The position numbers were made by a program, and so were the translations under genes. DNA of 55,364 nucleotides, counting the filler, from Dirinaria sp. TL-2023a (lineage: Eukaryota): NCBI GenBank assembly GCA_051941275.1. It is 2 parts of 2 records of this genome, joined end to end, with 100 filler letters (N's around TTAATTAATTAA, not from the genome) between each part and the next. Parts side by side here need not be neighbours in the genome. Positions count along the whole stretch, not along the records: positions 1 to 27,707 come from JAVEBF010000137.1; 1 more part is not named here. The stretch is one strand, 5' to 3'. Numbering within the stretch: position 1 is the first letter of the stretch; each line of letters opens with the position of its first letter. This document shows positions 1,893-33,474 of the stretch, piece by piece. The notes beneath the pieces are model-generated. The model saw only the letters and a list, made by a program, of their open reading frames with translations. It was not told the DNA's origin and ran no database searches.

Positions 1893-4087
1893 GTTCTTGA
1901 TCTCTGATGGAGCTGACGAAGCTACAAAGGCAAAGCGTGGATTGTAAATAACGCTCTGCAGGTGTACTGGAAATCAACAACGTTAATTCGCAGGTTCTAG
2001 CGCTAGATATGACTGAGTAAAGACAGGAGAACGATGAGAGAGAGAACAAATTAGGAGCAGACAATAGCAATTGATTACGAGTATGTGGACTGCAATCTGG
2101 TGGAGTCGAAGCTTTATAAAGGAGTAGCAAAGGCAGCCTTACCATTGGTACCGCACAGCCCCCAAAAGGTTAGGCAGATAACCTCGACGAACGTAATGCT
2201 CGGAATTATGATGGTGGGATCGAACTACGTTCTGAAAGATCACCATTGTAGCCGACGCATAGCGAGCTTTGGCTTTACACCAGAGCGGAAATTGGAGGTG
2301 CCACGTCAGACAGATACAGTATTACGCAGATAACGTGCGTTTGTGCGATCGTAGCTCTTTAAGGATTGCAGCAAGGTGTATGATGCAGTTCCCATTGCAT
2401 GATTTTTTGACGACGGCCCGCTCATTTGGATGACGGACCTGCCGAATATGGTATGAAAGGCCCGCGATGCAGTTAGCCCGGGATCTTATGGGCTATTCAA
2501 TCCCGTAAGGAACGATCAGTTCCACAAGAAGAGCATTTCCCGCGCCTGATTGACCCGCAATTAATCAGCAGAAGATATCCCAAGAATCCGCAGTTGAGAA
2601 CCAAGAAGATTGGAAGATCGTTCACGGTCAACTCTGTTCGTGCAATTCTGTTTAGCGAACGGAGAAATCACGCATCTATCATTTGGTCATGATTCGAGCT
2701 ACAATTTCTGCCGGGGTACCAGGCTACCAGCAGCGAGTCTCGGCTCGATGGCGAGAGACTTGTCTCCTATCCTTGCCACACCCACATGAAACGATTGTTT
2801 CGAAGTATCAATTGTTTCAAATGACTGGAGCATAGCCTCATGGCTGCCAATGATAATAATAGAGTGTCTAAAGGGCTGCACAAAGGAGTAAACCTCTCCT
2901 CGGCGACGCTGGTCTTGATCAAGAAATTATTGACCATCTTTGACAAAGGCATCATTTGCTTACCATACAGACACATTCGCAGTCTTAGATACAATCGCAG
3001 CCCACGAACTTGTGCGATTTTGTGATTTTCAAGGCTGATCGAAGGATCTAGAGCAGGGGGCTGAAACGCGCAAGCCTGTACGTACAGTAGAGTGTGGTCA
3101 TACTAGATAGTTGGCAGTCTAGCAGTCTAGCCGCTCGCTTGGGGAAAACGAACCCCAGCTTCCGGCCGCCATTGTGGCTTGACAGTTCGTGGCCGTGTGT
3201 AGGTAGTGGCTACAGTCTCTGAAACATTTATCAACCAGCATCCATGCATCGGTCCGCTCTGCATTCTATATTATTTCGAGGTCCAAATGTCAAGAATGGG
3301 GGTCAATGATGACTCCGGAGTATTCACTAGCGGCTGCCATGGCAGGAGCTTCATCATCTCCGTACGTTGTAGTCTGCTTCGTGACTTAAGGTATTTCAGT
3401 CACCCCAGATAGGCCATCAAATTCAGGCTGTGATTGTACAGCCCGTTGGTAGACTGCGGTTGATGTAAGCTCTTGAGGCGGTCCAGGAGTAAGGTACTTT
3501 TCTGTGGGAGACTGCAGACACGAATCCAAGTTCCGACACAAAGTGAGGGGAAACCATATTCAAGCTTGAAGTACACTTGCTGGTAAGACTGGAAACTTGT
3601 CCAAAGCCAAAGGTTTGTACGGAGTAGATGTCCACATGTTTCTCAATGGGAAAAGCAACTCAGCTCGTGCACGTCACCTTAAAGATAGCAAGTTGAACCG
3701 ATTGCAGATCGATCAGTCATTTTGCAGATGATAGCGTCCCCACTCAATAGGGAGATCCGCACCAAAAGACCTGGCTAACGCGGTCAACGGTCAATGTCGT
3801 TGATGGGACCAACTGGAAGTCGCTGGAGGGACGACCTAACATTATCACCTGAGCGTTTTGACTTGCCACCTCAGGTAGGGTGCAGCTATGCCATCCAAAG
3901 CCTCCATTACCTTATCTGTAGTCACCTGGAAGACCAGTCTTGGCGTACATGAAGCTAGCTAGAACTTATGGTTACTGTATGTGTGATCCTCCCACGCCTC
4001 CTTATTCCTTCAAGATGGCGTAGACGATGGACATTGAAGAGACGAACGGTGGAAAGCGACCGAATGCTCCGCCGCATTCCTTCCTCT

Positions 4088-5550: not shown

Positions 5551-7376
5551 TCACTTCACCAGCATTCTCATACCCCTTGAGCCAATTCGTGGAAAGGGCG
5601 TAAAAAAGTCGTGATACGTCTCTACATCCTCGATGGTTGTTTCAAATGGTTCCCACTGGAAGCGACCCGGTGCGAAAACAGCGGCTAGTGTCAGATACAA
5701 CTCGCAGTATGCAAGACTAGAATATGTCAGAGCAGATCCGACGACCACAGCCCTTGGTGAAGACAGGATGAAACGAAACTCACTTGAGGCCCAAACACTG
5801 CCTTGAGCCTCGACTGAACGGTGTGAGATAGTTCCGGAGGCGGTTAGAGTCGGATTGAAGCCATCTGTCGGGATTGAAAGCGCGAGGGTTGGGGAAGTGC
5901 TCCTCATTATTGTGCATCAGCACCGTACTCATGCCCACCGGGGTTCCGGGAGGGATGATCCACTTATCGTATTGCAGTGGAACGTCGGGGGATATCCTCT
6001 GAAGTCGATGTGTTACGCCATAAGACCATCGCAGGCCTTCCGTAATGACTGCAGTCAGGTATGGTAGTCTCTCCAGTTGCATCCATGTCACCTGCGCTTC
6101 TGGCTGGGCATAGACGGTTTCTAGCTCTTTCTGCAAGCGATCAAGAATTGATCTATTACTAGCAACATGAAAGGTAGTTGTGGAGAGCGTGTGTGCAGTG
6201 GTATTAGACCCAGCAGTGATGACTGATATTCCCTCTTGCTCAAGCCGGTCAATAGACTTGTCGGCCGTAGAAAGGTTTTCGTTAGTGAGGACTTCCGAGA
6301 AAACTGTTTTCTCCTCGACTTTTCCATTTGCTAATCCCTCTTGCACTTCCATGATTTTCTCACGGACAAGCTTCCAGGGTCAGCCCTGAATCTTTCGTGG
6401 GCATGGAATAGACCTGCCTTTGTTAAGTTCAGCATGCCTACGAGCCTCGGATTCATTGCTTCGACAACCGCAACAGGAAGCTTGCGGGTCAAAGGCTCCA
6501 TCCACGGGAATTGCTTGAACAAGTGCGATGCCTCCAAGAGGTCCAGCATACACTTGTTCCACCATGGCGAGAAATCAGGTGTGTCTAAAAAATTGTAGGA
6601 CGAGGCGAAAGCATATTGCCCTATGATCTACGGCACAGTCAGTCATTCGTCTGATAATCAGGCAAATTTCCCACATCATTGGTCAGAGCACTGTACGCAT
6701 CGATCAAGTTAATGGGGGTGCAAGAGCCTTGTAAACTTTTAAGACGTGAGACAAATTTGGCAATAACCGCTTGCACGGTAGGCTGGAGCTGTGTAACCGA
6801 TGCTTTGGAGAAGGACGGTGCTAATGCTCCTCTTCGTATCCGGTGAAGCTCATGGCTTCCAGTCGAGAAGCTTGCGACGGTGGGGCCAAAGGAGCTCGTG
6901 AACCATTCGTACTTCATGGTTCGTCGCGAAGAGCCAACGTACACCTCATCGTAGTAGCTAGGAAGGATGAGCGATAACGTAGGATAGCCGAAGAGAAGAT
7001 TCTACTCAGGGTCATCGATATGTATCTCATAAGGGCTATTCGGATCCATTCAGCATAATCTCTAAGCTTTTTCATAGTAGAGGCTCACTTGATTCGTATA
7101 ATTGGACCTAAGAAGATTAAGCAGAAGGTTAAGCACTTTCTAAAGATGCGGCTTTCGATGCGCACCGTATTCCTTGTGCAGATCTTTGATTTTCCATGTG
7201 TATCGGCCTCTCTTGACCACATCGTAATAGAACTCATACCACAGCGTCAAAGCCGCCAATTTGGGCCCGGGAAATTTCGCCAAAGGGCTGAAGTAAAGAC
7301 GATAAAGGGCCAAACAGACCAGATATGCCACCCAAAGAACAGATAAGGGGGCGATGAAGTGCGCAAATGAAACCAT
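5551..7376 (-). CDS. Cytochrome P450, CYP58/trichodiene-oxygenase-like, 7 exons, apparently intact
   Basis: Spliced reading gives TM anchor, [47 protein letters not shown]-helix AGSNTTA, EGLR (ExxR), FNPDRW (PERF) and heme motif [10 protein letters not shown]. All introns are GT-AG except a predicted GC-AG intron at 6371-6417. Confidence 0.92.
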
Positions 7377-12209: not shown

Positions 12210-13421
12210 TCACAACCCATTCTTATTCAACCACTCCAAGCTCGCCTGGTACCCCAAGTTCGCCCCCTTGTGGAAAGGCAATCCATGGCCTGTGCCCGGT
12301 TGCATGAATGTATCAATCTTCCTTGCATCCGGATACAGTTTCTTCAAAGCCTCCGTATTCACAGCATCGCTACAGTCACCCGCGCAAACAGCGTAGTCGA
12401 ACTGCGCCAGTACAAATTGTAGAGGACCCTTGAACCCCTTTGCCGGCCCCGGCGTCAACACCTGCGACAGCGACGCGATCTCAGCCCCTGTGAGCGTCTG
12501 CCGGATGGAATATGCGTAGTCTAGGAGCTTGGGATCGAAGCCGCCGATTCCGGTGGAGGTGTTCCGGCGGGTGGAGAAGAAGTTTGCTTGCATAGCGGCG
12601 TGCGTGCCGGGGACTATGTAGCCGGGGGATAGATTGGGGAAGAGCGTGGCGTTGTTTTGAGGCGCGTATTCGAGACCCCAGGCGGCCCATTTGTTGGATG
12701 AGAAACGGCCTGTCTGGATGTAGCCTGTGAGGACAGCGGCGTCGGAGAGGGTTGGGGAGGTAGCGATGAGAGCGTTGGAGAGGATGCTGCCAAAGCTGTG
12801 GCCGACGTGGATGATCTTGTCGAAAAAGACATTATAGGCGGACCCATTCTGTGTCGCGCTGGTGTTCTGCTTGAAAAGGTCCCCGTTGCGCGCCATCTTT
12901 GTTATAGATCGAAGAATGTCGAGTTCAAGTCCTGATTGCACGATCGTGTCTCCATCTGGATGAGCGGAGAGCCCAGTGCCGAGACGATCGTAGGTCAGGA
13001 TACTGTAGCCGGCTGCGAGGGCCGCGTCAACATAGGAATATTGCTGGGGATCAATAGCGACGTCCCAGTAGCGTTTGTCGAAACCTGAGCCGTGAGTCGC
13101 GATCTGGAGATGATTTTTCTTGGATCCATTGCTCGGAACGCAGAGCTGAGCACTTATGTCGAAGGTGTCAGAGACAGTGAAGTTCCGAAGTAATCGCTGA
13201 GTACCATTAGGGGAGGACCAAGTGTCGAAGTCGATAGCGAACGAGGTCGCGTCGATGTTGTTTTGGACTTTGATGATTTGATATTGTCCATTTTGCGCAG
13301 AAGCAGGTACGCGGAGTGAGAGATCTATGCAGGGCCTCTTGCTGGCGGAGACGTCTGTTGGAGCCGCGTTGAGAGGTGTAAATAGCAATTGGAGCAGAAT
13401 TACGGCAAGAGCGAGTACCAT
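12210..13421 (-). CDS. Secreted alpha/beta hydrolase (AB hydrolase_1/6-like)
   Basis: ATG at 13421 starts a signal peptide (MVLALAVILLQLLFTPLNAA). Motifs ATHGSGFDKRYW, YDRLGTG, nucleophile GHSFG, acid FD and catalytic His in GTGHG. Many N-glycosylation sequons. Confidence 0.88.
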   Translation of the reverse strand: MVLALAVILLQLLFTPLNAAPTDVSASKRPCIDLSLRVPASAQNGQYQIIKVQNNIDATSFAIDFDTWSSPNGTQRLLRNFTVSDTFDISAQLCVPSNGSKKNHLQIATHGSGFDKRYWDVAIDPQQYSYVDAALAAGYSILTYDRLGTGLSAHPDGDTIVQSGLELDILRSITKMARNGDLFKQNTSATQNGSAYNVFFDKIIHVGHSFGSILSNALIATSPTLSDAAVLTGYIQTGRFSSNKWAAWGLEYAPQNNATLFPNLSPGYIVPGTHAAMQANFFSTRRNTSTGIGGFDPKLLDYAYSIRQTLTGAEIASLSQVLTPGPAKGFKGPLQFVLAQFDYAVCAGDCSDAVNTEALKKLYPDARKIDTFMQPGTGHGLPFHKGANLGYQASLEWLNKNGL

Positions 13422-15098
13422 CTTTTCAAGAGTTGCAAAAGCCTGCGAATGTATTCTGGTGAAATTGAGAGGCACACGGAATCTGCGGTTTTTTATACAT
13501 GCTCGTCACTGTCTAAGGTGTAAGCTCCGGGATGTAAGTCTCGAAGCTGGCTGCGGCCACTTGCTTACACCGTCAAAAGCTCTTTCGTTGCGTAGCCAGT
13601 AGACCAAAGTATCAGTATCACTTGTCAGAGCCAAGGCTGTTCTCGATGTCTGAATGCTGCAATTAGGGCTTACTTGCACCCTGATTATTCTTTCGCTACT
13701 TTGACAAGAATTGGGTATATTCTCGTTCTCGTTCCCGTTCCCGTTCCTACTCAGTATTGAGGATAGTATATTGGTGATATGGCACAATCCTTCAACTTTC
13801 GGTATTCAGATACTCGACACTACTACTGTTAGGCTAGTATCATCTTGACGCTGAATGGCAAGACATGTTAATGCCTCGAGATGGCATGAAATGATATGAT
13901 AAAGAATAAAAATACTGTGAGTAGGACTTTTACTAGAGAAGTCCACTTAGCATGCCTGAGCTTTCTGTGCTTCCATTATGCGGCAGACAACGCATGACAT
14001 CGTATGAGACCAAATGCCACTCAAATCGATTAGTCTAACAGTGTAGCGTAGTGGTGTTGATATTATTGGGAATATGGTCTGATGTCGCCTCGAGTACCGG
14101 AAGTACCGACCCAGAGAAGTGACTTGATGTAACAATTGGCCCACACCTGAAGTTTAGCATTATTCAGGACGTCGTGCTGGTCCTCGTTTAAATTGTCGTT
14201 CCCGTTGTCGTTCAGTCGTCTAGCTTCAACTTGCGAATAGTATCATGTTGGCCCATGACCAGTAATGAAGTGAGTCAGCTGAGTAAGCTGCTATCAGCCA
14301 GTCGTGAAATCATTTCAAAGCGAAAATGCTGCATTTCGATGTGCAAGTAAAACCTTGTCAGAATACAAGGAGCGTATTGATCGCCACCCGCATTCGCACC
14401 TTGAGAGCCATTCTGCCAGATAAACACGGGGGTAAGGCGAAACTAAGGCGTGGTGACCATGAAGAGACGTCATCATAGATCATGCCATTAGTTCAACTGA
14501 GCATTCCAATCGTACTTCCAAATATATATGCTGTTCTGAAAATCGGTTCTGCCCATTCTTGGTACCATTTTCAAACTTTCTGCGGTTACATTCATTTTTT
14601 CAACAACAGCATCCGCGGCCACCTCCTAGCCGTCGCTGTACCGCTACCGCTTTCTTGATGATCAAATCCTATCTGACAAGTAGCCTTCAGATATACTACC
14701 GTATACGCTACGTAGTGACAATAGGTCGTCACAGCCAGCACTTCCCAATACCATAAATCTCGAAGCGAATAGATCTCGACCATGCGACAACCATTTTTTG
14801 AATTATCACTGTGAGAAGTCCGATTACTGGGACGTATGGGAGTATCGTCGACCTGCTAACGACTAAAATGTTAGCTATGGTCATCCTATTGCTCATACCT
14901 GCATATGCAGTCGCCTAAGGTACTTTAGAAGTTAAGTGTCCTGCGGCTGACAGCCCGGACAATCGCATAGCTCAACCTGCTAGCCTGCGAAATGGAGTTC
15001 GAGACTATGGCAAAGTGGGAGTAGATTGTAAAGTTAGGGTACTGCAGGTCCTCAATTGTAATGTTTTGTGGCAAATGCTAATCTGACGGTATTATTTG

Positions 15099-15686
15099 GT
15101 GGAGTTTCGGGCCAGAGGATTTGTCTTGTTCTTAGTTATGGCATTTCTCTCAGGAGCGTGCTTTGCTCTCTACAAGCGTCTGGGTGCTGATAGGTAGGTT
15201 GCTGCACTATCGACTTACAACTTATCAAGGTGAGTGGCAGAAAGCTCCACTTTAAGGTATTTGACTGATGTAACCAGCAACTTGAACTCCACGTGGGGAA
15301 ATATGGGACGCAAATTCCTCGTGCCATTTACTCAGACTACCCTGATCATAACGTATGGTCGGCCGCTTAGCTTAAGCCGGGCGGCCGACTTCCTCGATAT
15401 CTTCGAAGAAGAGGTGACTCGGTCGATGATCCCCAATGAACCTTCCTCGCTCCTGCCTGAGACCTGTTACGATATCATTGTAGACGGATTCAATTTCAGT
15501 GTGTATAGCCCGACTGAGATCAAGGAGGATGAGCATACGTCATGGGTAATTTTGAAAGATGTGGTTGATGGAGTCGGGATGATAGTGATTGGGGAAGCTC
15601 CAGTTAGATTAGTGGCTTTCATGATTGAGAATGGACCATCTGATATTTTCATTGGATACAGCCATTTCGTCCCGAGCAGGGGTTAG
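15099..15686 (+). pseudogene. Probable small secreted protein gene, apparently disabled by an in-frame TAG in exon 1
   Basis: Signal-peptide-like FVLFLVMAFLSGACFAL, in-frame TAG at 15195, GT-AG intron 15230-15278, then an open exon (FLVPFTQTTLIITYG...TSWVILKDVVDG...FMIENG..IFIGYSHF). An alternative start at the internal Met (NMGRK) cannot be excluded. Confidence 0.4.
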
Positions 15687-16085
15687 GACCTCGGTGAGAA
15701 AATGGGTTTTGAACGTCGAAAAAACGTGTTTCCAAAGAATGTTCCCGTTCAATCAAGGAAGCGAGAGGGCCAAACGAGAGAACGAGCATGTTGCGTTTAC
15801 GGGGCCCAATCACTGGACGGGCATGCGTTGATGTATCATCGTACGAGTTTAAAAAGAGCTTTAGAAGCATAGAAAGTCGACTAGTTGTCCCATGTGTTAT
15901 GCGCATCTGGCGAATGCTGAAGCTTTGGGTAACTTTGCCAGGATGTTTCTTCTATCTCAGGCAAGGTCATCTAGAGAAATCTTTGGAGGTTGTGCTTGCC
16001 ATGGTGTTATTGGGCTCTTAGATTGGACCACGATCCATGGACTGATAATCAGTTACCATCAGAACAGGCAGGTATCGCAAGGTCG

Positions 16086-16592
16086 TCACTGTAATACCTG
16101 AATTGACACGGGTGTACTAGACCTCTTATCTTCCGAATGTACATCGCTTTGAGGCTGCTCCAAAAATCCTCGCAAACACAGAGATGAGCAATCAGGGATT
16201 TGATTGCGGCCAGTACGAGATTTTCGGGACCAGGCTCCCCGATCGCGTTCTGTAGAAACGTCCAGTGCTGTAGGGATCATTGATCGCCCGACATCCGCCT
16301 CGTAGAAGCTGGAGAGTACCAGCAGCCGCCTCCTTCGAAAGCTCTGAATCATAGGTACTTGATCCAAGTTGCCAGCCACCTATTGCGGGGCATGCGTCAA
16401 GTCGTTTTGTGTAAGAAGGCAGGCAGAGCTGCGATGCTCATGATCGGCAGGCGAGGGGGAAGAAGTCACACTAATCAATGCTGGAGGTGCTAAAGTGGTG
16501 CTCAGGCGGTTGGATCTTGATGTAGGTAGGATACTCGGTAGAGGGTTGACAAATTCTATGACAATCAGCAGTGCGTATACGATAATATACAT
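16086..16592 (-). pseudogene. Possible decayed secreted-protein gene
   Basis: ATG at 16592 gives signal-peptide-like MYIIVYALLIVIEFVNPLP and an S/T/P-rich stretch. One TAG at 16380-16382, then the same frame stays open to 16086. No family recognised. Confidence 0.2.
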
Positions 16593-17742
16593 CAGCTTTG
16601 CCGGACGAAATGCCGCTCTCTATGGCACTTAACGATCGGATGGACCTGGCCATGACATATCACAGAGCCATTGCTGCACGCAACATGGCTCTAAAGCCAG
16701 AATAGGCCTAGGGATATCTCATCGGAGACTGCCCTCCCAGCTCTGACACAATGGACTGGCACGAAAATGTGGGGGGATGATTGATTGATTGTTGAACTGC
16801 GGAAAGACTCCTCATTCTGATCAGCGCAAGCGAAGGTATCGGAAAGCTTCCTGCCAATACGGATAAGCCCATGACACTATCAGAGTCCCTGGATGGGGCG
16901 TAAGCTTGGAGGTCGGATGGAGGTTACAAGGACGTGGCAGCGCCAAATAGAGCGTACAAGGCGTATCACGTGATCTCGTGAGATTAGATGAGTTGAGACG
17001 AAGATTCATGGGCGGCTGCTACTGCTTCCATTTAAGCAACAATGAGTTCACCTTGTTATAAGCACAATTCGCGGCGGAAATAAATCGAACAACCACATTA
17101 CTGTCGCATGTTCATTCAGAGCAGTTGAGGGAGAGCGAATTGATAAGTTACTGTACTCATGGGAATGTATCTTACCATCAAGGGAAGCCAGAAGGAATGC
17201 CAAAGGCCTCAGGATATCGTGTGCGCGGGTCATTTGCGAATGATTCGGGCCCTCATGCGTAAGTTGTGGTGCTAAGCAGTACATGCAGCACTAGTTACTT
17301 GCAGTTGTTACTCGCCCAGCCAATAATTTTCATATCCTGGTTATCGTCATACCTGTTGGCCACGAAATCTTCCAGAAGCAAGAGTGAGACTGTTCGATGC
17401 AAACGGCAATCGACAGGCATAGCGACTCCTCGTCCTGCTGCGCTGGGAAGTCTCAGCCGTTCTCAGCTAGTCTCTGCTAAGCAATGCCTCAATGCTATAC
17501 GGGCTGCCATTGACACGGACCGTGATGGCAATTTAAAGAATCTCAAGGCAGGTCAATTTTCTATTGCCACAGGAAGGGCAAAGTGATTGTTTGCATTTCC
17601 TCTACTGGGTAAAGAAGAGAGCCAAAAATTCACGCATCGCATTTCTCATGACAGACCTTTCGTTTATCCCGATGAGATTTGCCTAGCCCGTCAATTGACA
17701 AATACCTCGAATCATCGAGCTCATCTGCCAAAGTCGCGAGGG

Positions 17743-18619
17743 ATGGCTTCCGGTTCAAGTCGAGGATCGACGCCAGCGCCAGATGTTAGGGATATTGCCA
17801 AATATTATAGGGATCACTACGTGTCACAAGACCAAAAGATTAAGTCAGATCAGATTGCTGCCTTAGCCCAGTTGCTTTCAGGACACCCTTTCGATGAGAA
17901 ATTTTACATCATTGGTGGAGCGGCGGTGCAATTGGTGGGTTCAGACCGTATCACTCGCGTAAGTGGTTCCTGGTGTCGCAAACGTAAGACTTTGCCCCTA
18001 ACAATGACACCTTCGCCAGGATATCGACATGATATATGACACCAAAGACGCTATGGATCGGGTGCGCAACGGACTTCGCACCTTTCGCGACGGTAACAGC
18101 GGCTTTGCCGTCATGCCTGGCAGTCAGGTGGTATATTGGTATAACAAGCCCAGCCCAACCGTCGTCATCCTTTTAGACATGCACTATGCAAGCCAGGGTA
18201 AACCTCCTTTTCCAACCATGCCCATTGCGTCTTTTCCAGTCATTCCAAGGACAGGTGTACCCATTGCGCCTTCGTTGCTCAATCTTTGCTACAAGCTCAT
18301 TGCTTGGTCGACACGAGATGGAAAGAAGAAGGAGACTGATGCGGAAGACATCTTGTTTTTACTTGGTGTGGGAGACCTGAAATCGCCTCGTCTGCCGGAA
18401 AGCCTAAAAGGGCAATCTTGGTGCCCTGCGTGGACGATGGGGTTTCCCCCGGGAGCGGCAGGTGCTCCGCAGCCGGTGGTGGGAGGCAATGCTGCGGGAG
18501 TGGCTGTCTGGGAAGAAGCTCGGAAAATTTGGCAAAGGTCGTGGACGGGCAGTCCACGAGTACAGAATTTTGACAATGAGCGATCGGTGTTGTTCCAGGA
18601 GATCCTCCCAACCCCCTGA
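17743..18619 (+). CDS. AbiEii-like (type IV toxin-antitoxin toxin / Pol-beta superfamily) nucleotidyltransferase, 2 exons, ~271 aa
   Basis: Exon 1 17743-17958, intron 17959-18019 (gtaagt...ccctaac...ccag), exon 2 18020-18619. Splicing rebuilds FYIIGGAAVQLVGSDRITRDIDMI (GG...R.T.DxD). The C-terminal YKLIAWSTRDGKKKETDAEDILFLL matches K..A...R...D..D. Confidence 0.75.
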
Positions 18620-20828
18620 ACAGGCAATATCCCATCCGTCGGCAGGGTGTGGCATTCAGGGGCACCATGTGGTCAGCCAAGACCATTCTTTGAAGTCCTT
18701 ATGAAAAGGTCATAACATAATTACGAAATAATGTGTTGCTATTGGGCGTACCTTGGTCGTTTCTCTAAGAACCATTATATCTCATTAGGTACATAGCCAA
18801 GGAGTATTGTGACTCCTAGGCGCCTACCTCAGCATCCTAGCCGTCGGAGTGCATTTCGCCTAGAAATGTCAAGAAATTTCATGCCCACGGTGCCGATGGA
18901 TAGCATAGGATATCTTGCCGTGCCAGTATGGGCATGTTCGCTCGAAATTCCACACTGCAAAACCTGAATATCGGAGACTTATTAGACTCGTTCGGGAGCA
19001 TCAACGTGTTTACGCTCAAAAATGTCTCGCTCAATTCTCACGCTGACTAGTCTTCGAATGCTCTCCTTACTGAATGGAATGTGCGTCTTTGCATGGCAAC
19101 TCAAGGGGTAAATGGACTTGAATTATTGTGTCTCTCTCCTCGCCAAATTCTGCCTTGGGCCAGTGATCCATTTACCGAGCATGCCACTTTGAGCAACGTC
19201 CTTCACCTAGTCAGCACTCTTGTCGAACCCTTTGCCTGGCTTACCCATTTTTTGACACGATTCGCATGATCTGCACAGTTGCTTACTTTTTCCAATATTA
19301 CATACCGAATATCCATTGGGTATACCATCTAGCCAGGACCCGTCTTGAAGTCTATTGAAGCCTTAATTTGAGGAGAAGAGAGGTTTCCAGGCGAAGTGGC
19401 AAGGCAATTAGCTTCTTGCTGGGCTCCCAGGGTTGCGAGAATGTTTGGTACGAGTACCGTAGCCACGAGGACTTCTAGCAATGGTATACTCCTCGTTTGG
19501 TCTAGGTAGGAAAGTCTAACCCTTCCCTGGCAAGACTGACAAAAAGCATTCGCAGCAGCTGCAAGCTCAGCGGCATCTTACGGAAATTGTCAGATGTCTT
19601 AATGGGCAAGACGTACCTTCTTCTTTGAACCCTCAACCACCTACATCCATATGAAAGCCTTACCTCTTCCAGGAACTTCTTGCTTCTTCATATTCTCGAT
19701 TGCCAATCCCCCCCATTCTTATAGCATTCCAGCTCAACATCCATCACCCAAGGCTTTATTTCTCAGAACCTGATACTTTGCTCCACGTTGAGCAGGACAC
19801 TCACCGGCAGCAATTCACCAGCTCCTCGCAGTTTTCCAATCCGGATCTATAATCTCTGCTCTCAACCGTCAGCATGTTAGTTCACACACATCATACCCCT
19901 CTCAACCCTGGCAGCAAGCCATCTAGCTTTCACCAAAGCCTACTAGTAGAGTATAGGACAGCAGGCATTGACGGCATAAGCAGGATATCGTTTTCTCATG
20001 TGATGTAGACTGATTTAGTAGTACGATCACAATAGGTGGCCATGCTGTATAGTTATTGTGGCTGAAGATCGAGGATGCTGGCGGGGCGGATAATGCATCT
20101 GTCTAGTTATCATGCAAGCACAGGAGTCCGTGATCGTTACGACCGAAATGTCCTGCTCAGCTGTTCGTTCGATCAATGTAGATCACACAAGGCGGACTAG
20201 GATGAATTGTTGGCGCCGCTGGGCTATGCACTTGAGGCGTCTTAGCTGTATGCTGTAAATTTGGTATGTAGTAAGCTATCATTTCAGCATTGGGAGTCTG
20301 CTTCGTCGGCATTCATGCGAAAAAAAAGAAAAAAAAAAAAGGCCAAGTCACAAGCTTTACTTTCCGACATATGGAAACCGTGGGGGAAAGGGGCTGTATT
20401 GTTGCTATGTTCTATCGTGTGCGAAGGGGTCATTGAAAGCATCTGTACTGTACATCGGTGGTGCCGGAGAGCGCTGGCGCAGCCGCAAGGCTACTAGTGC
20501 GGAAAAAGGTGACAGTGCTCGTACATAATGAAGAAGTTCCAGTTGGTTTGATGCAGCTGTTATCTCTGCTCGTTAGCATCGTCAGTGTCACAAGCAGAAT
20601 GCACTGTTGGTGGTGGGCATTGGATAGTTAGCACATAAGTGTAGTATTATATAAAATAACCTTCTTCACTAGTGCCGCAAAGACCCATATAAGTTCGTTC
20701 AGATACCTCTTTGCGATTACTGAATCCCCATTCGGAGAGCTCCAAGCCTGGAACGGTGGCGCCTCCGCTCTTCGAAAGAGCGAAAATTTGAGACCAGGAC
20801 AAGCGTTCAACTGTTCTCCTTCGTGGCC

Positions 20829-22362
20829 TTACTTTTTAGTCGATATCCCAGAAATCGCTTCATGGAGCGCCTCTTCATCACGCTTTTCATCCCTCGGTAT
20901 TTCATCCTCTAGTTTTTCTTTATGAGCACCGTTGCCATTCTGCAGCTCGGGATGCTCGAGAGAAGTGGGCGAGTGGGCGATGTGGCGCCAGAATAGAGGA
21001 ATGAGTGGTAAGCAACAACAGATGATACCACAAGCTACTTCCCCGTAACCTAAGAGGCCGGTTTGTCCGTGGATGAACGAGTAGCTGCGAACAATTTCCG
21101 AGTCAGCGTTTGAGGATCACAATACAGGCCGCTGTTAGGCTGCCCATGTCGCAGGAGATTGTTCACTCTCGGAACACGTCGTGGGGTTCAGAAGGTAGCA
21201 TTGGGGCTATGAAAAGAAACTTACTCCTCCGAATGCAGGAGCCTCATCTGGAAATAGACGCGCGTGGCTGCGCATACTGTTGCGAAAACACCGAACTATG
21301 GGGGAAATGGACGAGTCAGTCGGCATGTTCAATCTTAGAGAGAAAAGTACGGAGTTATGGTAGGTACCTACCGCAAAGATAGCACTTATACCAAGTTTGC
21401 GCTTTGTACTCATCCGCAACTGCCAGACCATGATCACGGGTACCACCAACAAAACCTGTGAAGGGTTCAAAGTCAGCATCGTACTAACAATTGCATCAGT
21501 GTAATGTGAAAATTTGTTCTCGATAGCAAATAAATCTGCTCTTCATATGTCGTCTACTCCGCGAAAGACCTTAGAACGCTGGAACACCACCAAACGCTTT
21601 GCCGGATTGAAGATTCTAGGTTGCTTCAACGCGTCCCAAAAGTTTGAAACGGAACATTAAACAGAGTAATGGGCAGCGAATGTCGAGCTGATTGAAGTGC
21701 GTCAGAGGGGGCGAAATCATTCGAAAACGACTTACAACGTCCCCAATCGTATTAAAGGAAGCAGCGGATTCATATAGCATTTTAGTGTTGAAGCATTTGC
21801 CTGGCACATCGGCGTTCCAGATCTTGCGGCGAGGACGGCAGGCAAAGATGTTGATGAACAAAGCTATGGTGTAATAGATGGCATTGGCCCATAAGAAAAG
21901 CTGATTGATCCAGAAGAGGATATTTCGTTTAACACCGAGGAAGATTCGACTAATGAGGAGGAAGAGCGATACTTTGATGCACCCATATGCGATGCACACG
22001 TGCATGTCGGCAATGTTCGCCAGATGCTGATTCCGCGAAACTGTCTCTTGAGAGAGGTTCCACATATGTGTCCCTGCACCGTAGTAGCTCGCTGAGTGCA
22101 ACTCGAGGGAGACAAAAACGAGGTAAGCCAGCCATCCGAGGATACACGTATAATCTTCCAATAATAGCTTCTTAACGACGAAGACCTTGACATAGATGCG
22201 CGCTAATACCAAGATTGTGGTTACAATGATGGCTTCTGATATGGTTACAATCGTGTATGGCAGCAGCGTATATGGCTGTTCGAAGTTGGGTATGACTCCG
22301 GCAGGTGGAGTGAGCGCTGGCGTGGGAGGAGATGTCAGAGTATAGGTGGCTGGAGGAGCCAT
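20829..22362 (-). CDS. Pth11-like integral membrane receptor (fungal rhodopsin-domain family, no CFEM domain), 4 exons
   Basis: N-terminal PPAGVIPNFEQP. Motifs LARIYVK, EDY, GAGTHMWN, IKVSLFLL, ACRPRRKIW...GKC, FNTIGDV, PVIMVWQLRMSTKRKLGISAIF, EVACGIICCCLP. Introns are GT-AG and the stop is at 20829-20831. Confidence 0.88.
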
Positions 22363-23159
22363 GCTGGATGGTGTTACTTGTTATCTTGCGAAGACGTCTG
22401 GCCGTTGTCGACTAATGCGACCTGTAAAGAAGGGCATGTAAAAAGTATAGTAGGTGCTATATGGAGAGACCGAATATGAAGGCCCTCAAGTATCATGAGG
22501 ATAGTGCCAGTTGCAATTGGTACAAGCTTAAACCCACGGGTCGCATGTGGTGAAATGAACGATCTTCTTTAGCTTGAGACGGGATCTGCTTGGATTGCAT
22601 ATATTTCTTACTAGAGTAAAGTATCTGCCACTACCTTACTCACTAGACACAAGCTGCACCGTGCAGCCCGGAAATATTTGATTTATCGGCCTTCTTCGTA
22701 TAGGTAACATCGTCTACAGCTGTAGCTGATCAACTTATCTATCTGATGTATTTGGACTTGTGTACGATACCAAACAACTCATATTTTCATCTTTGCGCGA
22801 GGCTGCGCTGTGCGAGCAAAGTAAATGGCACTGCGACAACTGTCTTCTAATCGCAGCGTTAAATCACGCTGATGCGACGACGTGTTGGAAGATTTTCGAA
22901 TTCCATAATTCGTTGCAGCTGTTATCGCTAAGACGCTGTGCCTCAAACCTCACGTTGGAGCCGTGGTTTGATTTGCTCAGCGGAAGCGAGATCCAGGCGA
23001 TCTTGTTGACGGCGTCAAGTCAAATGCTAGCCTAAACTATGCGCGCCTGTCATTGGCAACTCTTCCCGGTTCAGCATCACCACCCACTAGGCATACATGA
23101 GACACACTGCTGGTTTCGTATTGCCCGATGCGACAACGATATTGAAAACGCTGATGTCT

Positions 23160-25387: not shown

Positions 25388-25478
25388 GGCTTGTTGGTGT
25401 AGTTGGTTATCACGTGTCCTTAACAAAACATAATTTGTGTTGCGGACAAGGTCCTGGGTTCGAGTCCCAGACGAGTCA
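25388..25478 (+). tRNA. tRNA-Val(AAC) with 17-nt intron (25426-25442)
   Basis: Acceptor stem GGCTTGT/ACGAGTC, A box TGGTGTAGTTGG, anticodon stem TGTCC/GGACA with AAC at 25422-25424, intron after position 37, T arm CTGGG-TTCGAGT-CCCAG (B box), discriminator A. Confidence 0.93.
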
Positions 25479-30226: not shown

Positions 30227-30852
30227 ACTGCTTCCTCGACGCTAAAAGAAAATTGTAGTCCTAATGAAGAACGAATTACTTGCATAAAGCCACCAAAGAT
30301 TCAACTCGTCATAGGCGAAGTCTGATCGGATGAGTTCGGCATGACCGTATCGTCTAGTACTAAAATACAACTGAAGTCTTTTTGAATCTGGAGTTGTATA
30401 CACTATCAGTAAGTATACTGCTTCATTGGCGCTGGGGGCAAGTTTGGTCATCCGTACAGTGGTGACGAAGGGCGTTCTCGGCATCTCCAGCTCCTTGCAT
30501 TGCCGAAGTCTATCCGAATTTTCACCGACATGTAGGGTTGGATTGTAACACCTCAAGGCAACGTACCTTACTTTCCATGAGTATGTACTGCGTACCCAAG
30601 GTACTCTGTAGGTACTGAAATCACTGATTTCTCTCAAATTTTTAGCGTAGGCCATACTCTCCAAACAGTACCCTATGTTCCATCTGCCTTTCATCCCAGA
30701 AGGCGTTGTCGAGTGCTCCAAGGAATTCTGTCGCGGTGCATAAGCACCCATTAACATCTCTGTAGACTTCCCAAGGAAGACAAGATTAAGATGGCAACAT
30801 CTTATTGTCCCTGCATTCGATGACAAAGTGAACAGAGCTGGCGTGAGACGCC

Positions 30853-33474
30853 ATGGACGGCGATGGTGCTGCTACTGAGCCAGAGACATCCAACTCTCTA
30901 ACAGACCTCTCAACCGTGGCCACACGCGATGCGAAGCCCCGGCCCGCTCATCAACGCCTCGTCCTGACTGATCCGGTAGCATTCAGATATCTCGAAGAGG
31001 ATACTTCGCTCACGGTCCTAGAGCGGCGACGGCGCCTGCAGGGATATGAATCCTACATCGTCGAGCAATGGATATGCTCGAGAGAACATCCAACGTTCAT
31101 CATCACGACGTATACGGGCCTTGAGCAGCATTCTGTGTTTGTTGGCGTTTTGAGTGTCCCTACTGACGAAGATGAATGGTCTCCAAGACTTCGAGTATGG
31201 TTCAAGGCGCTTGCAAAATTCCATGCTCGAAAGAAGGAGACTCCATTGGGAACGTTGATGGTGACGAACCTCAGCGGCTTTCCATCGGCTCTGACAGTCA
31301 TATCTGTCCCGGATGGTGACGTAAAAAAACATCGAGACGACTTCATCGTTAACGAGAATATGAAGCGCTTGGGTTGTTCTGGACGAGCTGGCCTCAATCT
31401 AGCGCCGCCTACGAGTGCAACACAAGCAAAGTTCAAGCAGCAATATCGCACAAGTGATCATGTGTCTTTCTATGGTGCCGTTATCGAACTCGTAAAGCTT
31501 AGTCAAGTCGCCCTTGTTCTTTATGGGAAGCTTGCACCTGAATATGCTGATGGCCTAGTATGTGACGTTACCGAACGGGCAATAAATGACTGGTGGAGCG
31601 ATTTGGGCGCTGAGTACTTCAATATCGACCCCACAGACGGCATACTAGGCCCAACAACAGTATCGGCCATGCTTGGCCTTCTTCTGGGAGCGCGGAATCG
31701 ACTTCACGCGTATGGCGCACCGGTCGCGAAAGATGTATTTGATCTGATTAGCACGAAGAGGGCAATCGCCTATTTTCAAAAATCGCAAAAGATAAAGCAA
31801 ACACGGCGATTGGATAGGAAAACCTTGGAATGCCTGCACAAAGCCACAGCCAAAGCTGCGAGCGGAGAGGGCTGGACCATGCCCCGAGCTGTCAAAACTA
31901 CAGTTGCAGAACTAAGCGGAAAAGGAAGTAATATGGTCATGGGGAGGACGGGCGCCCGTGAGAAGGCTGGTATAGCTGATATCGAAACTTTGGACATTGA
32001 GACTTTTATAAGCTTATTGTCCGGGGAGAGGTCAAAGTGGCTTTGGTATGGAAAGCCCCGAAAAAACAATGAAAGCGATTCCCTTAGCAACCTCGGTGGG
32101 GACGATGGCATCGTGTTTACGAAGGACGAAAATGGAGGTTACAAGTGGACAAGCCAGAAACGGGATTCTGCAGTCGACGATAATCGAGTTCGTGGCCTAT
32201 CTTCTCAAATTTACAATCATTCAACGCATGGATCGCAGGCAAGCATTGAATCGCCTGAGAAGGAACAGGCTCTTCGACGTAAGGCCTTGAAAACAGTCAG
32301 CGGAAGGGTTACCGACGCAAGGAGCGGTCTTGGTCGGATCAAAGATGCCGTTGGCATGGCTGGTCTTCGTGGTCATCATCATAAGTACTCCAAGGAGGAC
32401 AATGTGTTATCGGACGCAGAGAGTTTCAGAGATCGACCATCTCGACGCAATGATGAGCAAGCAACAGCTAATATTGAAGACACAAGCTCCTTAAAAAGCC
32501 AGGAGGATTTGCCGATGGCAAATGGAAAAGCTTTACCAATCTCGGCAAGCCTGCCAGAGCTGGTCAATCCTCAACAGCAGCAGCTTGAAGCTCATTCATC
32601 TTCGCAAGACTATTCCAAAGACGGAGACAAGCTTGATACCTCCTCAAATGCCAGTTCAGTGAGTGCCGCTCAAGGTATAGGCCCGGCAAAGCGTCCCTCA
32701 CTTCCGCTTGCGACCGCAGACAACCAGCTTGCCTTAGACTTTGACGGGGAGTTGGCCAAAAGAGCAAGCGGCCTAGACCGAGTCAGCTTAGACAAAACTT
32801 TTCGCAGACAACCAGCACTTCCCATGCCCCTTAGAAGAACACGAAGTCTTCCTCATTGCACAACCCCAGTTGGCTTAGACCACACTGAGGCTTACCGCTG
32901 GGCAAGACATCTATCTTTCAGCAATTTTGTCGATGTTCTTGCCAACGACAACGCTGGTAGTTGGCCTGTTGCACCCTCTTCTGAGATAGACGAAACCAAA
33001 GCACCGAACAATGCGTTGCTGAGGGAAAAAGGGCTAGCATTTGAAGCACACCAAATGGCCAAGTCACTCCAACAGTTAAGAGAGAATGATGGGTCTCTTG
33101 TCGAGCGCAAGGTTGATGAGGTCACTGCTTTAGACAAGCAAGCTGCTCATGATCATGAAGTTCTCGAAGATTTGTATCACACCAAATTAGAGGAGCACAA
33201 TAGCTTGAAAGAAGCCTCGGATGACTTGCTAGCCGAGGAAAGGACTACTTTGGCTGAGTGCGTCAAGGACGTGGAGATATTGGGTGCCAAGCTCGAGTAC
33301 GAGCTGAACACTCTCCAATCAAAGGTCGAGGATATGGAGAACGGCATTGCGGATTTTGAACGTCAAATTGAACAGCTTGAGAGTAGAGCAGAGGAGCTCA
33401 TCGAAGAAAAGAGAATCTCTTGGGTGCAGTGGGCACTTGGTTTTTTCTCGCGGACCAGCAAACCGCAACAATGA
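30853..33474 (+). CDS. Sin3-binding protein STB2/STB6-like
   Basis: 873-aa intronless ORF. N-terminal domain VLTDPVAFRYLEED...GYESYIVEQW...LMVTNLSGFPS...NENMKRLGCSGR...DGILGPTTV, with a C-terminal coiled coil. Confidence 0.85.
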   Translation: MDGDGAATEPETSNSLTDLSTVATRDAKPRPAHQRLVLTDPVAFRYLEEDTSLTVLERRRRLQGYESYIVEQWICSREHPTFIITTYTGLEQHSVFVGVLSVPTDEDEWSPRLRVWFKALAKFHARKKETPLGTLMVTNLSGFPSALTVISVPDGDVKKHRDDFIVNENMKRLGCSGRAGLNLAPPTSATQAKFKQQYRTSDHVSFYGAVIELVKLSQVALVLYGKLAPEYADGLVCDVTERAINDWWSDLGAEYFNIDPTDGILGPTTVSAMLGLLLGARNRLHAYGAPVAKDVFDLISTKRAIAYFQKSQKIKQTRRLDRKTLECLHKATAKAASGEGWTMPRAVKTTVAELSGKGSNMVMGRTGAREKAGIADIETLDIETFISLLSGERSKWLWYGKPRKNNESDSLSNLGGDDGIVFTKDENGGYKWTSQKRDSAVDDNRVRGLSSQIYNHSTHGSQASIESPEKEQALRRKALKTVSGRVTDARSGLGRIKDAVGMAGLRGHHHKYSKEDNVLSDAESFRDRPSRRNDEQATANIEDTSSLKSQEDLPMANGKALPISASLPELVNPQQQQLEAHSSSQDYSKDGDKLDTSSNASSVSAAQGIGPAKRPSLPLATADNQLALDFDGELAKRASGLDRVSLDKTFRRQPALPMPLRRTRSLPHCTTPVGLDHTEAYRWARHLSFSNFVDVLANDNAGSWPVAPSSEIDETKAPNNALLREKGLAFEAHQMAKSLQQLRENDGSLVERKVDEVTALDKQAAHDHEVLEDLYHTKLEEHNSLKEASDDLLAEERTTLAECVKDVEILGAKLEYELNTLQSKVEDMENGIADFERQIEQLESRAEELIEEKRISWVQWALGFFSRTSKPQQ

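Follow-up and report, generated by a model that had tools for sequence, protein, structure and literature searches.

A spliced fungal gene of the AbiEii/MenT (DUF1814) nucleotidyltransferase family in Dirinaria sp.

Gene structure, expression and selection

The gene described here lies on the plus strand of a window of 55,364 nucleotides (the whole stretch of DNA that was analysed, filler included) from the genome of Dirinaria sp. TL-2023a and consists of two exons separated by a short intron (Table 1). The frame that starts at the ATG at 17743 is open to 17958 and encodes 72 amino acids (aa), and a second frame that runs from 18020 to the stop codon at 18617-18619 encodes 199 aa; the intron between them opens with a GTAAGT donor and closes with a CAG acceptor, and its CTAAC branch site lies 18 nt from the 3' end. 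Splicing yields a 271-aa protein in which the junction reads ...GSDRITR/DIDM..., with the segments YKLIAWSTR and ETDAEDILFL encoded in exon 2; an N-terminal hydrophobic signal is absent from this protein. A Dirinaria sp. entry in GenBank, annotated as 'hypothetical protein', matches this sequence letter for letter, so that the gene, presented as missed in the preliminary description, had indeed escaped the track of open reading frames (ORFs) but not the GenBank annotation, which contains the same 271-aa model.

Table 1. Coordinates of the gene, its parts and its transcribed flanks in the window
Feature	Position	Strand	Description
Upstream flank	17500..17742	+	Transcribed, probably 5' UTR; RNA-library contigs of the relative continuous into the start codon
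Exon 1	17743..17958	+	Codons 1-72; start ATG, N-terminal helices, motif I, first half of motif II
Nucleotidyltransferase core	17860..18397	+	Residues 40-198, interrupted by the intron; Pfam AbiEii match and confident part of the model
Motif I, I57-G58-G59	17911-17919	+	Within exon 1
Motif II, first half, R69-I-T71-R	17947-17958	+	End of exon 1
Intron	17959..18019	+	61 nt, spliceosomal, phase 0; interrupts motif II between R72 and D73
Exon 2	18020..18619	+	Codons 73-271 plus stop at 18617-18619
Motif II, D73-I-D75	18020-18028	+	Start of exon 2
Motif III, K164-L-I-A-W-S-T-R171	18293-18316	+	Exon 2
Motif IV, D179-A-E-D182	18338-18349	+	Exon 2
C-terminal extension	18398..18616	+	Residues 199-271
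Downstream flank	18620..18800	+	Transcribed in a close relative (RNA-library contigs); probably 3' UTR

RNA of a close relative, approximately 97% identical, in a lichen metatranscriptome directly supports the splicing. A contig from one run (X1), in which the shorter arm of the joint measures 38 nt, joins 17958 to 18020 ('skips 61, GT..AG'), and a contig from a second run (X2) of the same sample has a loose end at 17959 and continues with the first letters of exon 2. The intron is retained in none of the contigs from the RNA libraries of this relative; these are assembled sequences that show neither the strand nor the ends of the transcript. The proposal that two separate ORFs are joined through a canonical 61-nt intron within the catalytic motif is thus confirmed by both the sequence and an RNA contig that skips precisely the predicted positions. 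A further database entry, P0005, corresponds to exon 1 of another relative, with 89% identity over 72 aa, and reads into the intron (VSGS, followed by a stop).

Comparison with the contigs of the close relative reveals a divergence of about 7-8% in the flanks and about 3% in the exons. The 236 nt compared in the upstream flank contain 16 differences as well as a deletion of one nucleotide at 17624, a faster divergence than in the coding part; the downstream flank contains 12 differences over 152 nt (18649-18800). Among the 19 listed coding differences, 14 are synonymous and 5 nonsynonymous; exon 2 accounts for 15 of these, of which 11 are synonymous and 4 change the protein (twice in codon 196 and once each in codons 216 and 270), and within residues 40-190 all 8 differences are synonymous. 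Judging by this substitution pattern, the gene is under purifying selection.

Genomic context

Two genes are the closest that can be recognised, one for an alpha/beta hydrolase and the other for a membrane protein of the Fung_rhodopsin type. When the 22 ORFs of at least 70 aa between 13.5 and 21.5 kb were scanned, the sole Pfam match was to Fung_rhodopsin, in one of them; the other 21 had none. In agreement with the preliminary description, no antitoxin-like partner was detected within approximately 4 kb on either side at the level of Pfam domains, a level at which small or multi-exon partners could escape; in particular, the Pfam scan of the nearby ORFs did not identify a gene for AbiEi (COG5340), COG4861 or a MenA antitoxin next to the nucleotidyltransferase gene. 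The search of Rfam over 13.6-21.6 kb produced no match. The earlier characterization of the surroundings as a decaying accessory region is not borne out: the GC content is even (0.43-0.53), the gene is flanked by no repeats of note, and the window harbors ordinary housekeeping genes (class II tRNA synthetase, CTLH/RING, PCI and polysaccharide deacetylase).

Family assignment and predicted structure

The spliced protein matches the AbiEii family of Pfam (PF08843) with 25.0 bits and an E-value of 2.1e-5. The match spans residues 40-198 and profile positions 2-179 of 238, and its margin over the gathering cut-off of 22.5 bits is only 2.5 bits; the orthologue from Brigantiaea scores 34.2 bits against the same profile. 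Searched singly, neither exon matches any nucleotidyltransferase family in Pfam. The family profiles retrieve PDB chain 5uvd_A with E-values of 7.4e-11 and 8.1e-14 and the MenT1 chain 8an4_A with E-values of 1.2e-4 and 4.5e-5, and reach only these two structures, the ANT and Lnu chains not being significant. In the searches with single exons, a similarity of residues 136-202 to the NhaA antiporter (E about 0.01 for PDB chains; 14.5 bits against a cut-off of 254 in NCBIfam) was judged to be a chance match.

In a phmmer search of 1.84 billion representative sequences, 12 matches had E-values of 1e-3 or less, of which two are fragments, namely P0005 (see above) and P0012, from a 907-nt contig. 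Two long repeat proteins among the 12 (P0006 and P0007) were judged spurious by direct comparison, their weak local match being summed over the repeats; another long repeat protein in the phmmer list, P0013, was judged spurious from its Pfam make-up alone. Metagenome scans with A4 and P0016 as queries found no relative. Within DUF1814, the gene falls into the fungal, antitoxin-less, Pb27-like branch, and there into a highly divergent subclade that it shares with another lichen fungus, Brigantiaea; over two orders of Lecanoromycetidae, descent in this lichen clade appears to be vertical.

The possibility that there is no gene at this locus, only two chance ORFs abutting a GT...AG, might be entertained given that neither exon by itself has a family match and that antisense ORFs of 127 and 133 aa overlap the locus, but it is refuted by the Pfam match that appears only once the exons are joined, the spliced RNA contig and the excess of synonymous differences, biased to third codon positions, with a 55-59% identical orthologue present in another order and no Pfam match for the antisense ORFs or any alternative-frame ORF across the gene, so that we assign it a negligible probability. 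Together with the identity to the GenBank protein, these lines of evidence place the gene beyond chance: the locus is a genuine gene of the lichen mycobiont that is spliced, expressed and maintained by selection, looks single-copy and encodes a soluble product, and it is almost certainly a real member of the DUF1814 (AbiEii/MenT) family with the nucleotidyltransferase fold.

An AlphaFold model built from 42 sequences is of medium confidence overall (pLDDT 71.2, pTM 0.70), whereas the single-sequence model (pLDDT 32) is unusable. The former is confident at residues 51-110 and 151-190, where blocks of 10 residues have mean pLDDT values of 87-91 and 85-91, respectively. The C-terminal part, residues 199-271, is mostly of low confidence (pLDDT below 50 at 208-229, 250-257 and 259-271) and rich in Gly, Pro and Ala, with a Trp-rich helix at about 230-248; in the alignments, only the Brigantiaea homologue and the fragment P0012 have this extension too. 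The best Foldseek matches of the model are 5UVD, MenT1, MenT3, MenT4, JHP933, ANT(2'')-Ia and LnuA, with E-values from 2e-6 to 1e-4. Structural comparison gives Z-scores of 13.9 for 5UVD (194 aligned residues, rmsd 3.1), 12.4 and 12.1 for MenT1, 10.7 for MenT3, 9.1 for MenT4, 11.2-11.4 for ANT(2'')-Ia and 11.1 for LnuA. The protein is accordingly modeled with a pol-beta-type nucleotidyltransferase fold and a helical C-terminal domain. The profile and structural matches, those to MenT structures included, bear out the proposal of an intron-split fungal AbiEii/MenT-like gene.

Conserved motifs

The DUF1814 family is defined by four motifs, namely hG[G/S]x9-13DhD, with an arginine in motif II, KLxAaxxR and +DxxD (PMC3985639). 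Motifs I and II are complete in the Dirinaria protein, with 13 residues between I57-G58-G59 and D73-I-D75 and with R69 four residues ahead of D73, and so is motif III. In motif IV, both aspartates (D179 and D182) are present and D179 is preceded by T178 rather than a basic residue; the conserved K175 and K176 lie 3-4 residues upstream. All the motifs named in the preliminary description (GG, R-x-T-x-D-x-D, K...R and DxxD) are therefore found. Among the 42 family members, G59, R69, T71, D75 and K164 are invariant, D73, S67, K175, D179 and D182 are conserved in 41, and R171 in 40. The alignment matches T39, D41, K137 and D152 of MenT1, residues that have been probed by mutation (PMC11375011), with T71, D73, K164 and D182, respectively.

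The two lichen proteins deviate from this pattern in a central strand: they lack the acidic residues in the columns of V121, where 39 of the 40 other family members have E or D, and of T119, where 24 of the 40 do. Both carry a 6-residue insert in this strand that includes the conserved D125. Judging from the alignment, the loss of the strand acidic residues may have altered or abolished catalysis, and D125 could stand in for the lost acid. Because these acids are kept by nearly all relatives, the nucleotidyltransferase activity of the lichen pair is uncertain.

Relationship to known systems

The closest known relative is Pb27 (PbP27) of Paracoccidioides brasiliensis, an 'antigenic nucleotidyltransferase-like protein' of about 220 aa that, like the Dirinaria protein, is fungal, antitoxin-less and of the DUF1814 fold. 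Its structure is taken to be 5UVD, an identification that relies on the PDB title and PMC7913102. 5UVD is the best match of the Dirinaria protein by both profile and structure and shares with it GG...R-x-T-x-D-x-D and K...R...D-x-x-D in the alignments, yet the two are only 16-20% identical. Furthermore, 5UVD has a VELEV strand where the Dirinaria protein lacks E-x-E and has the 6-residue insert, and the Dirinaria protein differs from Pb27 by an additional Trp-rich C-terminal extension of about 75 residues and its gene by the intron inside motif II. Roles in yeast morphology and glucose metabolism have been attributed to Pb27 as a nucleotidyltransferase-like antigen (table in PMC5434249; PMC7913102); the passages surveyed state no enzymatic activity for it.

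Among the bacterial systems, MenT1 (Rv0078A), MenT3 and MenT4 of the MenAT systems of Mycobacterium tuberculosis share the predicted fold of the Dirinaria protein, but are encoded next to MenA antitoxins, whereas no partner was found for the Dirinaria gene. AbiEii (Streptococcus agalactiae / Lactococcus; type IV toxin-antitoxin, abortive infection), compared by motif definition, has motifs I-III in common with the Dirinaria protein, which also passes the PF08843 cut-off. However, the spacer between GG and DxD is 15 residues in AbiEii and 13 in the Dirinaria protein, the latter has DxxD without the adjoining '+' (T178), and the AbiEii system is bacterial whereas the Dirinaria gene is eukaryotic and intron-bearing and lacks AbiEi (COG5340) or COG4861 upstream. 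The nucleotidyltransferases ANT(2'')-Ia and LnuA share the same minimal fold as the model, but are smaller (158-185 aa), act on small molecules and show no significant sequence-profile match.

The existence of antitoxin-less DUF1814 genes in fungi has been on record since 2014 (PMC3985639); the passages on AbiEii-domain genes in fungal comparative genomics give only unexplained 'toxin' annotations (PMC13468701, PMC13448219, PMC11822852). Given this precedent and the crystal structure of Pb27, the novelty attributed to the gene in the preliminary description was overstated: the Dirinaria gene adds a divergent member to a fungal family already known, does not amount to a new kind of system and by itself leaves existing knowledge unchanged. 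It is a well-supported eukaryotic representative, and an unusually divergent one, of a family of toxins that in bacteria tail tRNAs and thereby block translation, and what it contributes is direct splice evidence, evidence of purifying selection and a list of invariant residues. We know of no activity, substrate or phenotype for any fungal DUF1814 member.

Possible functions

The best explanation of the observations appears to be an antitoxin-less, Pb27-like fungal nucleotidyltransferase that probably binds NTP-Mg2+ and transfers NMP to an acceptor, although our preference for this reading, like that for the protein being a working enzyme still, is a slight one. The N-terminal alpha/beta domain would bind NTP-Mg2+ through G58-G59 and D73/D75, together with R69 and T71, and the helical C-terminal domain would contribute K164...R171 and D179/D182. 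A hydroxyl group of an acceptor would then receive the NMP. On the analogy of MenT, this hydroxyl would most plausibly sit at the 3' end of tRNA or another RNA; taken on its own, an RNA 3' end as the acceptor is a tentative suggestion that draws on this analogy. The Dirinaria protein would not be one half of a toxin-antitoxin pair.

Less probable, but to be taken seriously, is a catalytically silent, nucleotidyltransferase-like pseudoenzyme that has kept the fold and the nucleotide-binding residues for a structural, binding or regulatory role; the same may apply to Pb27, an antigen of the cytoplasm and cell wall. The loss, in the lichen pair, of the central-strand acid kept by 39 of the 40 other members is compatible with such a role, as is the description of Pb27 in PMC5434249 and PMC7913102, as far as these accounts go, solely as a nucleotidyltransferase-like antigen with no activity stated; moreover, expression in a thallus metatranscriptome in the absence of an antitoxin fits a harmless protein more easily. 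However, all residues that are sensitive to mutation in AbiEii or MenT1 (GG, R, D-x-D, K, R and D; PMC3985639, PMC11375011) are kept and are invariant or nearly so across the 42 fungal sequences, and D125, present in both lichen proteins, could replace the lost acid.

An unlikely alternative to a nucleotidyltransferase that acts on RNA is an enzyme like ANT(2'')-Ia or LnuA that modifies a small molecule, either a xenobiotic or a metabolite. Lichens are surrounded by antibiotic producers, and the structural similarity of the model to these enzymes is nearly at the level of MenT1. ANT(2'')-Ia has also been placed in the DUF1814 superfamily (bioRxiv 10.64898/2026.01.19.700257). Against this assignment, the family profile is significant for 5UVD and MenT1 only, Aminoglyc_resit of Pfam appears a single time, below the cut-off, in one relative (P0010), and no biosynthetic or resistance gene was found adjoining the nucleotidyltransferase gene.

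Equally low is the probability that we assign to a fungal conflict effector (in cell death, allorecognition or antiviral defense), that is, a toxic nucleotidyltransferase restrained until a trigger arrives. The bacterial relatives are abortive-infection and toxin-antitoxin toxins (PMC3985639, PMC7450476), the AbiEii-domain genes of Colletotrichum siamense are expanded alongside NACHT, HET and Helo_like_N (PMC13468701), the fungal DUF1814 family has a patchy distribution and several paralogues in Tuber, and the phospho-acceptor threonine of MenT1 is invariant in the fungal family (T71). Conversely, the protein contains no fused NLR, HET or HeLo domain, and the three long hits of the phmmer search of unrestricted length are repeat proteins judged spurious; no NLR, HET or HeLo gene lies alongside; no PADLOC-DB family was matched by the spliced protein at E-values up to 10; and the lichen clade combines apparently vertical descent over the two orders with purifying selection.

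One specific form of the nucleotidyltransferase reading involves the invariant T71. MenA antitoxins induce auto-phosphorylation of MenT at T39 or S78 (PMC11375011). We speculate, with a good deal less confidence than we give to an RNA acceptor as such, that the fungal Pb27-like proteins are active MenT-like tailers of tRNA or other RNA 3' ends that are restrained, without an antitoxin, by auto-phosphorylation of T71, the counterpart of MenT1 T39. If so, fungi would possess a means of braking translation reversibly during dormancy or desiccation, or else a conflict effector, and the lichen proteins, marked by their Trp-rich tail and by D125 as a strand acid in a new place, would represent a re-tuned version of such an enzyme. 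The list of invariant residues, among them the MenT phospho-acceptor threonine, makes the question of the fungal function testable.

Gene structure and evolution

The gene is real, is spliced in a close relative and evolves under purifying selection. Its exons join in phase 0 (R72|D73, by sequence inspection), and the coordinates, the split of the catalytic motif and the exon 2 motifs YKLIAWSTR and ETDAEDILFL all agree with the intron-split AbiEii/MenT-like (DUF1814) nucleotidyltransferase of the preliminary description. The gene is indeed absent from the plain list of open reading frames but was not missed altogether: the spliced 271-aa product is letter-identical to the GenBank 'MAG: hypothetical protein Q9191_001625 [Dirinaria sp. 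TL-2023a]', and the gene model is therefore already part of the public annotation.

A sequencing-run search listed five runs, three of which are RNA libraries from a single lichen-metagenome sample that contain 17-23% of the words of the stretch. The splice data are contigs assembled from this one sample of a relative that is ~97% identical, rather than raw reads of Dirinaria sp. TL-2023a; they were aligned to the window at a likeness of at least 85% and carry no strand or transcript-end information. In one run (X1), a 661-nt contig covers 17921-17958 and 18020-18642 and omits exactly the 61 nt of the proposed intron, with GT..AG ends. Consistently, a contig from a second run (X2) stops at 17959 and continues with eight letters that match the start of exon 2, and no intron-retaining contig was found among the RNA contigs aligned to the window. 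A 76-aa database fragment (P0005), which is 89% identical over residues 1-72 and terminates in ...VTRVSGS, represents exon 1 read into the start of the intron up to a stop, so that the same exon boundary exists in a third, more distant relative. In lineages where prokaryote-style gene callers recovered relatives as single open reading frames of about 200-240 aa, the intron would, for that reason, be absent at this site.

Divergence from the relative is greater in the flanks than in the exons (see the table). Among the differences listed (the list for the whole stretch leaves out 6 further ones), 19 are in the coding sequence, 14 synonymous and 5 nonsynonymous, the latter in codons 9, 196 (two), 216 and 270; within residues 40-190, all 8 listed differences are synonymous.

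Coordinates of the nucleotidyltransferase gene, its flanks and other features of the window
Feature	Position	Strand	Details
Upstream flank	17524-17759		16 differences and a 1-nt deletion in 236 nt, compared with the relative's contigs
Exon 1	17743-17958	+	ATG at 17743; open frame, 72 aa, C-terminal end ...IIGGAAVQLVGSDRITR; 5 differences in 192 nt, compared with the relative's contigs
Intron	17959-18019	+	61 nt; GTAAGT start, CTAAC 18 nt before the end, CAG end
Exon 2	18020-18619	+	Frame opens DIDMIYD..., 199 codons, stop 18617-18619; 19 differences in 623 nt, compared with the relative's contigs
Downstream flank	18649-18800		12 differences in 152 nt, compared with the relative's contigs
T5orf172/MUG113 (GIY-YIG-like) domain ORF	522-1973	-	483 aa, domain at residues 252-353
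Cytochrome P450 frame	5780-6379	-	199 aa, covers profile positions 220-414
Alpha/beta hydrolase	12210-13505	-	Pfam
Fung_rhodopsin membrane protein	21207-22380	-	Pfam
tRNA-like gene	25388-25478	+	ARAGORN call, no assigned identity, four-letter anticodon 'taac'
Large open frame	30847-33474	+	875 aa uninterrupted; PG_binding_1 sub-threshold only (22.2 against 23 bits)

Family assignment and predicted fold

The gene is confirmed as a divergent member of a known group, the fungal, solitary DUF1814 nucleotidyltransferases similar to Pb27, an antigen of Paracoccidioides brasiliensis. Neither exon alone matches a nucleotidyltransferase family in Pfam; the spliced protein matches PF08843 (AbiEii) over residues 40-198 (25.0 bits, gathering score 22.5, E 2.1e-5) and DUF6036 below threshold, and NCBIfam and PADLOC searches with it gave no relevant match. 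A phmmer search of 1.84 billion representatives yielded only 12 matches at E <= 1e-3, of which seven are full-length (about 200-340 aa), led by those from Brigantiaea leucoxantha (59% identity across the matched segments) and from Niveomyces insectorum, and two are fragments (P0005 and P0012). Three long repeat proteins (P0006, P0007 and P0013) were rejected as spurious, the weak match being summed over repeats, as judged by direct comparison for the first two and by Pfam make-up only for P0013. These proteins are bacterial-type, with PKD/DUF7402 or ~67-aa tandem units, and their phmmer E-values range from 1e-7 to 4e-4; such repeat-summed values can mislead automated family expansion.

A first profile search brought in 12 more proteins and a second one 25. 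The matches with a named organism (8 of 14 in the first search and 9 of 28 in the second, plus Niveomyces) come from Dirinaria, Brigantiaea, Tuber, Choiromyces, Hyaloscypha, Lachnellula, Amorphotheca, Fusarium and Niveomyces, all of which we take to be ascomycetes (taxonomy was looked up for Dirinaria and Brigantiaea only). As a lead only, the nearest clusters in a protein-atlas look-up are 100% eukaryotic (Ascomycota and Basidiomycota), with archaeal and bacterial DUF6036/DUF2204 clusters further down. Profiles of 9 and 42 members matched the structures 5uvd_A ('Nucleotidyltransferase-like protein', Pb27; E 7.4e-11 and 8.1e-14) and 8an4_A (MenT1 of Mycobacterium tuberculosis, 'AbiEii/AbiGii toxin family protein'; E 1.2e-4 and 4.5e-5). 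The 42-sequence fungal alignment excludes the fragments and spurious matches, a near-duplicate (P0016) and four extended or partial proteins (P0025, P0030, P0031 and P0032).

The AlphaFold model built from this alignment has a pLDDT of 71.2 and a pTM of 0.70, with a core at 85-91 and a disordered tail. Foldseek ranked first 5UVD ('Crystal structure of an antigenic nucleotidyltransferase-like protein from Paracoccidioides brasiliensis'), followed by MenT1, MenT3, MenT4, JHP933, ANT(2'')-Ia and LnuA. A second structure aligner gave 5UVD a Z of 13.9 (194 residues, rmsd 3.1), MenT1 12.4 and 12.1, ANT(2'')-Ia 11.4, LnuA 11.1, MenT3 10.7, JHP933 9.4 and MenT4 9.1, with generic pol-beta/mu structures near 7. 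With 5UVD and MenT1 as the top structural matches, the anticipated nucleotidyltransferase fold is present, as far as the predicted model shows.

Conservation of the active site

DUF1814 is defined by hG[G/S]x9-13DhD (motifs I and II), the motif II arginine, KLxAaxxR (motif III) and +DxxD (motif IV), and mutation of G49, R63, D67, D69, K173, R180 or D192 abolishes AbiEii toxicity, according to Dy et al. 2014 (PMC3985639). The spliced protein carries the AbiEii-type signature reported earlier (GG, R-x-T-x-D-x-D, K...R and D-x-x-D): I57-G58-G59 is followed after 13 residues by D73-I-D75, with R69 four residues N-terminal of D73; motif III reads K164-L-I-A-W-S-T-R171; and motif IV, D179-A-E-D182, is preceded by T178, which is not basic, with K175 and K176 upstream. 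Conservation in the fungal alignment is complete for G59, R69, T71, D75 and K164 (42/42), and extends to 41 of the 42 sequences for S67, D73, K175, D179 and D182 and to 40 for G58 and R171.

In the profile alignment, with the chain numbering corrected by one residue, MenT1 T39, D41, K137 and D152 align with T71, D73, K164 and D182. MenT1 D41 and K137 are described as required for NTP binding and activity, and T39 as the site of antitoxin-induced auto-phosphorylation that turns the toxin off (PMC11375011). T71 is invariant, though fungi have no known trigger antitoxin. By alignment, the predicted nucleotide-binding residues are conserved in the Dirinaria protein, which would bind NTP-Mg2+ and might transfer a nucleotide to an acceptor molecule, possibly the 3' end of an RNA. 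The central strand is at odds with this conservation: the V121 column holds E or D in 39 of the 40 other members and V in both lichen proteins (Dirinaria and Brigantiaea); the T119 column holds E or D in 24 of the 40 and T/S in the lichen pair. Both lichen proteins have a six-residue insert on the central strand, L-D125-M-H-Y/S-A, in the same register in hhalign, and D125, present in both, may take over the role of the lost central-strand acidic residues.

Fungal relatives and phylogeny

Fungal members are already on record. Papers of 2014 and 2020 mention DUF1814 proteins 'in even fungal genomes' that are unlinked to antitoxins (PMC3985639, PMC7450476). Another refers to 5UVD as 'a putative fungal NTase' (PMC7319586); Pb27, a nucleotidyltransferase-like antigen, is described as the sole crystal structure from Paracoccidioides (PMC7913102) and is listed within the DUF1814 superfamily in a 2026 preprint (10.64898/2026.01.19.700257). 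A review table places PbP27 in the cytoplasm and cell wall, with a role in yeast morphology and glucose metabolism (PMC5434249). In Colletotrichum siamense, an AbiEii-domain family is expanded alongside NACHT and HET, with no function given in the available text (PMC13468701); AbiEii-domain families in skin fungi and Sporothrix epigloea are likewise given no function there (PMC13448219, PMC11822852). The accessible literature on fungal AbiEii/DUF1814, 5UVD and Pb27/PbP27 yielded no enzymatic activity or RNA target for a fungal member.

Maximum-likelihood analysis of the 42 sequences groups Dirinaria with Brigantiaea in a separate clade (support 100/99), whose stem measures 3.37 changes per site. 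Apart from it stand a clade rich in Tuber sequences, one with Niveomyces and a large one with Leotiomycete and Fusarium sequences; the exact position of the lichen clade is unsure because long branches meet there (program warning). Dirinaria (Caliciales) and Brigantiaea (Teloschistales) both belong to Lecanoromycetidae (taxonomy look-up), which fits vertical descent within lichen fungi. Truffles encode several paralogues in a distinct subclade (P0023, P0027 and P0032 in Tuber borchii; P0029 and P0031 in Tuber magnatum). For two of the Tuber borchii copies the reported contig is 327,799 nt long and may be one and the same, which points to local expansion.

Genomic context

The family assigned by the preliminary description is right, and a recognisable partner is absent, as it had also stated. 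None of the 22 ORFs of at least 70 aa scanned at 13.5-21.5 kb is antitoxin-like: 21 lack a Pfam match and the other, 21210-21542 (-), matches Fung_rhodopsin only, although small or multi-exon neighbours could escape such a scan. The absence of a partner at the Dirinaria locus is the known condition of fungal homologues (PMC3985639). No Rfam family scores above threshold at 13.6-21.6 kb.

The supposed decaying accessory region did not hold up. GC content is even across the window (0.43-0.53), the gene has no notable flanking repeats and the surroundings are ordinary fungal gene space by Pfam matches of the window ORFs, including polysaccharide deacetylase, CTLH/RING, class II tRNA synthetase, SAD/SRA, BTB, PCI and aldo-keto reductase genes; there is no sign of AT-richness or decay. 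No Pfam-matching ORF of at least 70 aa lies in 13600-17740 (about 4 kb upstream) or 18800-21200 (2.4 kb downstream), and these intervals may hold unannotated exons or non-coding transcripts. The relative's RNA contigs extend past 17500 and 18800.

Domains of the T5orf172/MUG113 type, one of which is encoded near the start of the window, are often associated with mobile or selfish elements. The P450 frame presumably corresponds to a single exon of a gene with several exons, and the tRNA-like call could reflect a tRNA that contains an intron or could be false.
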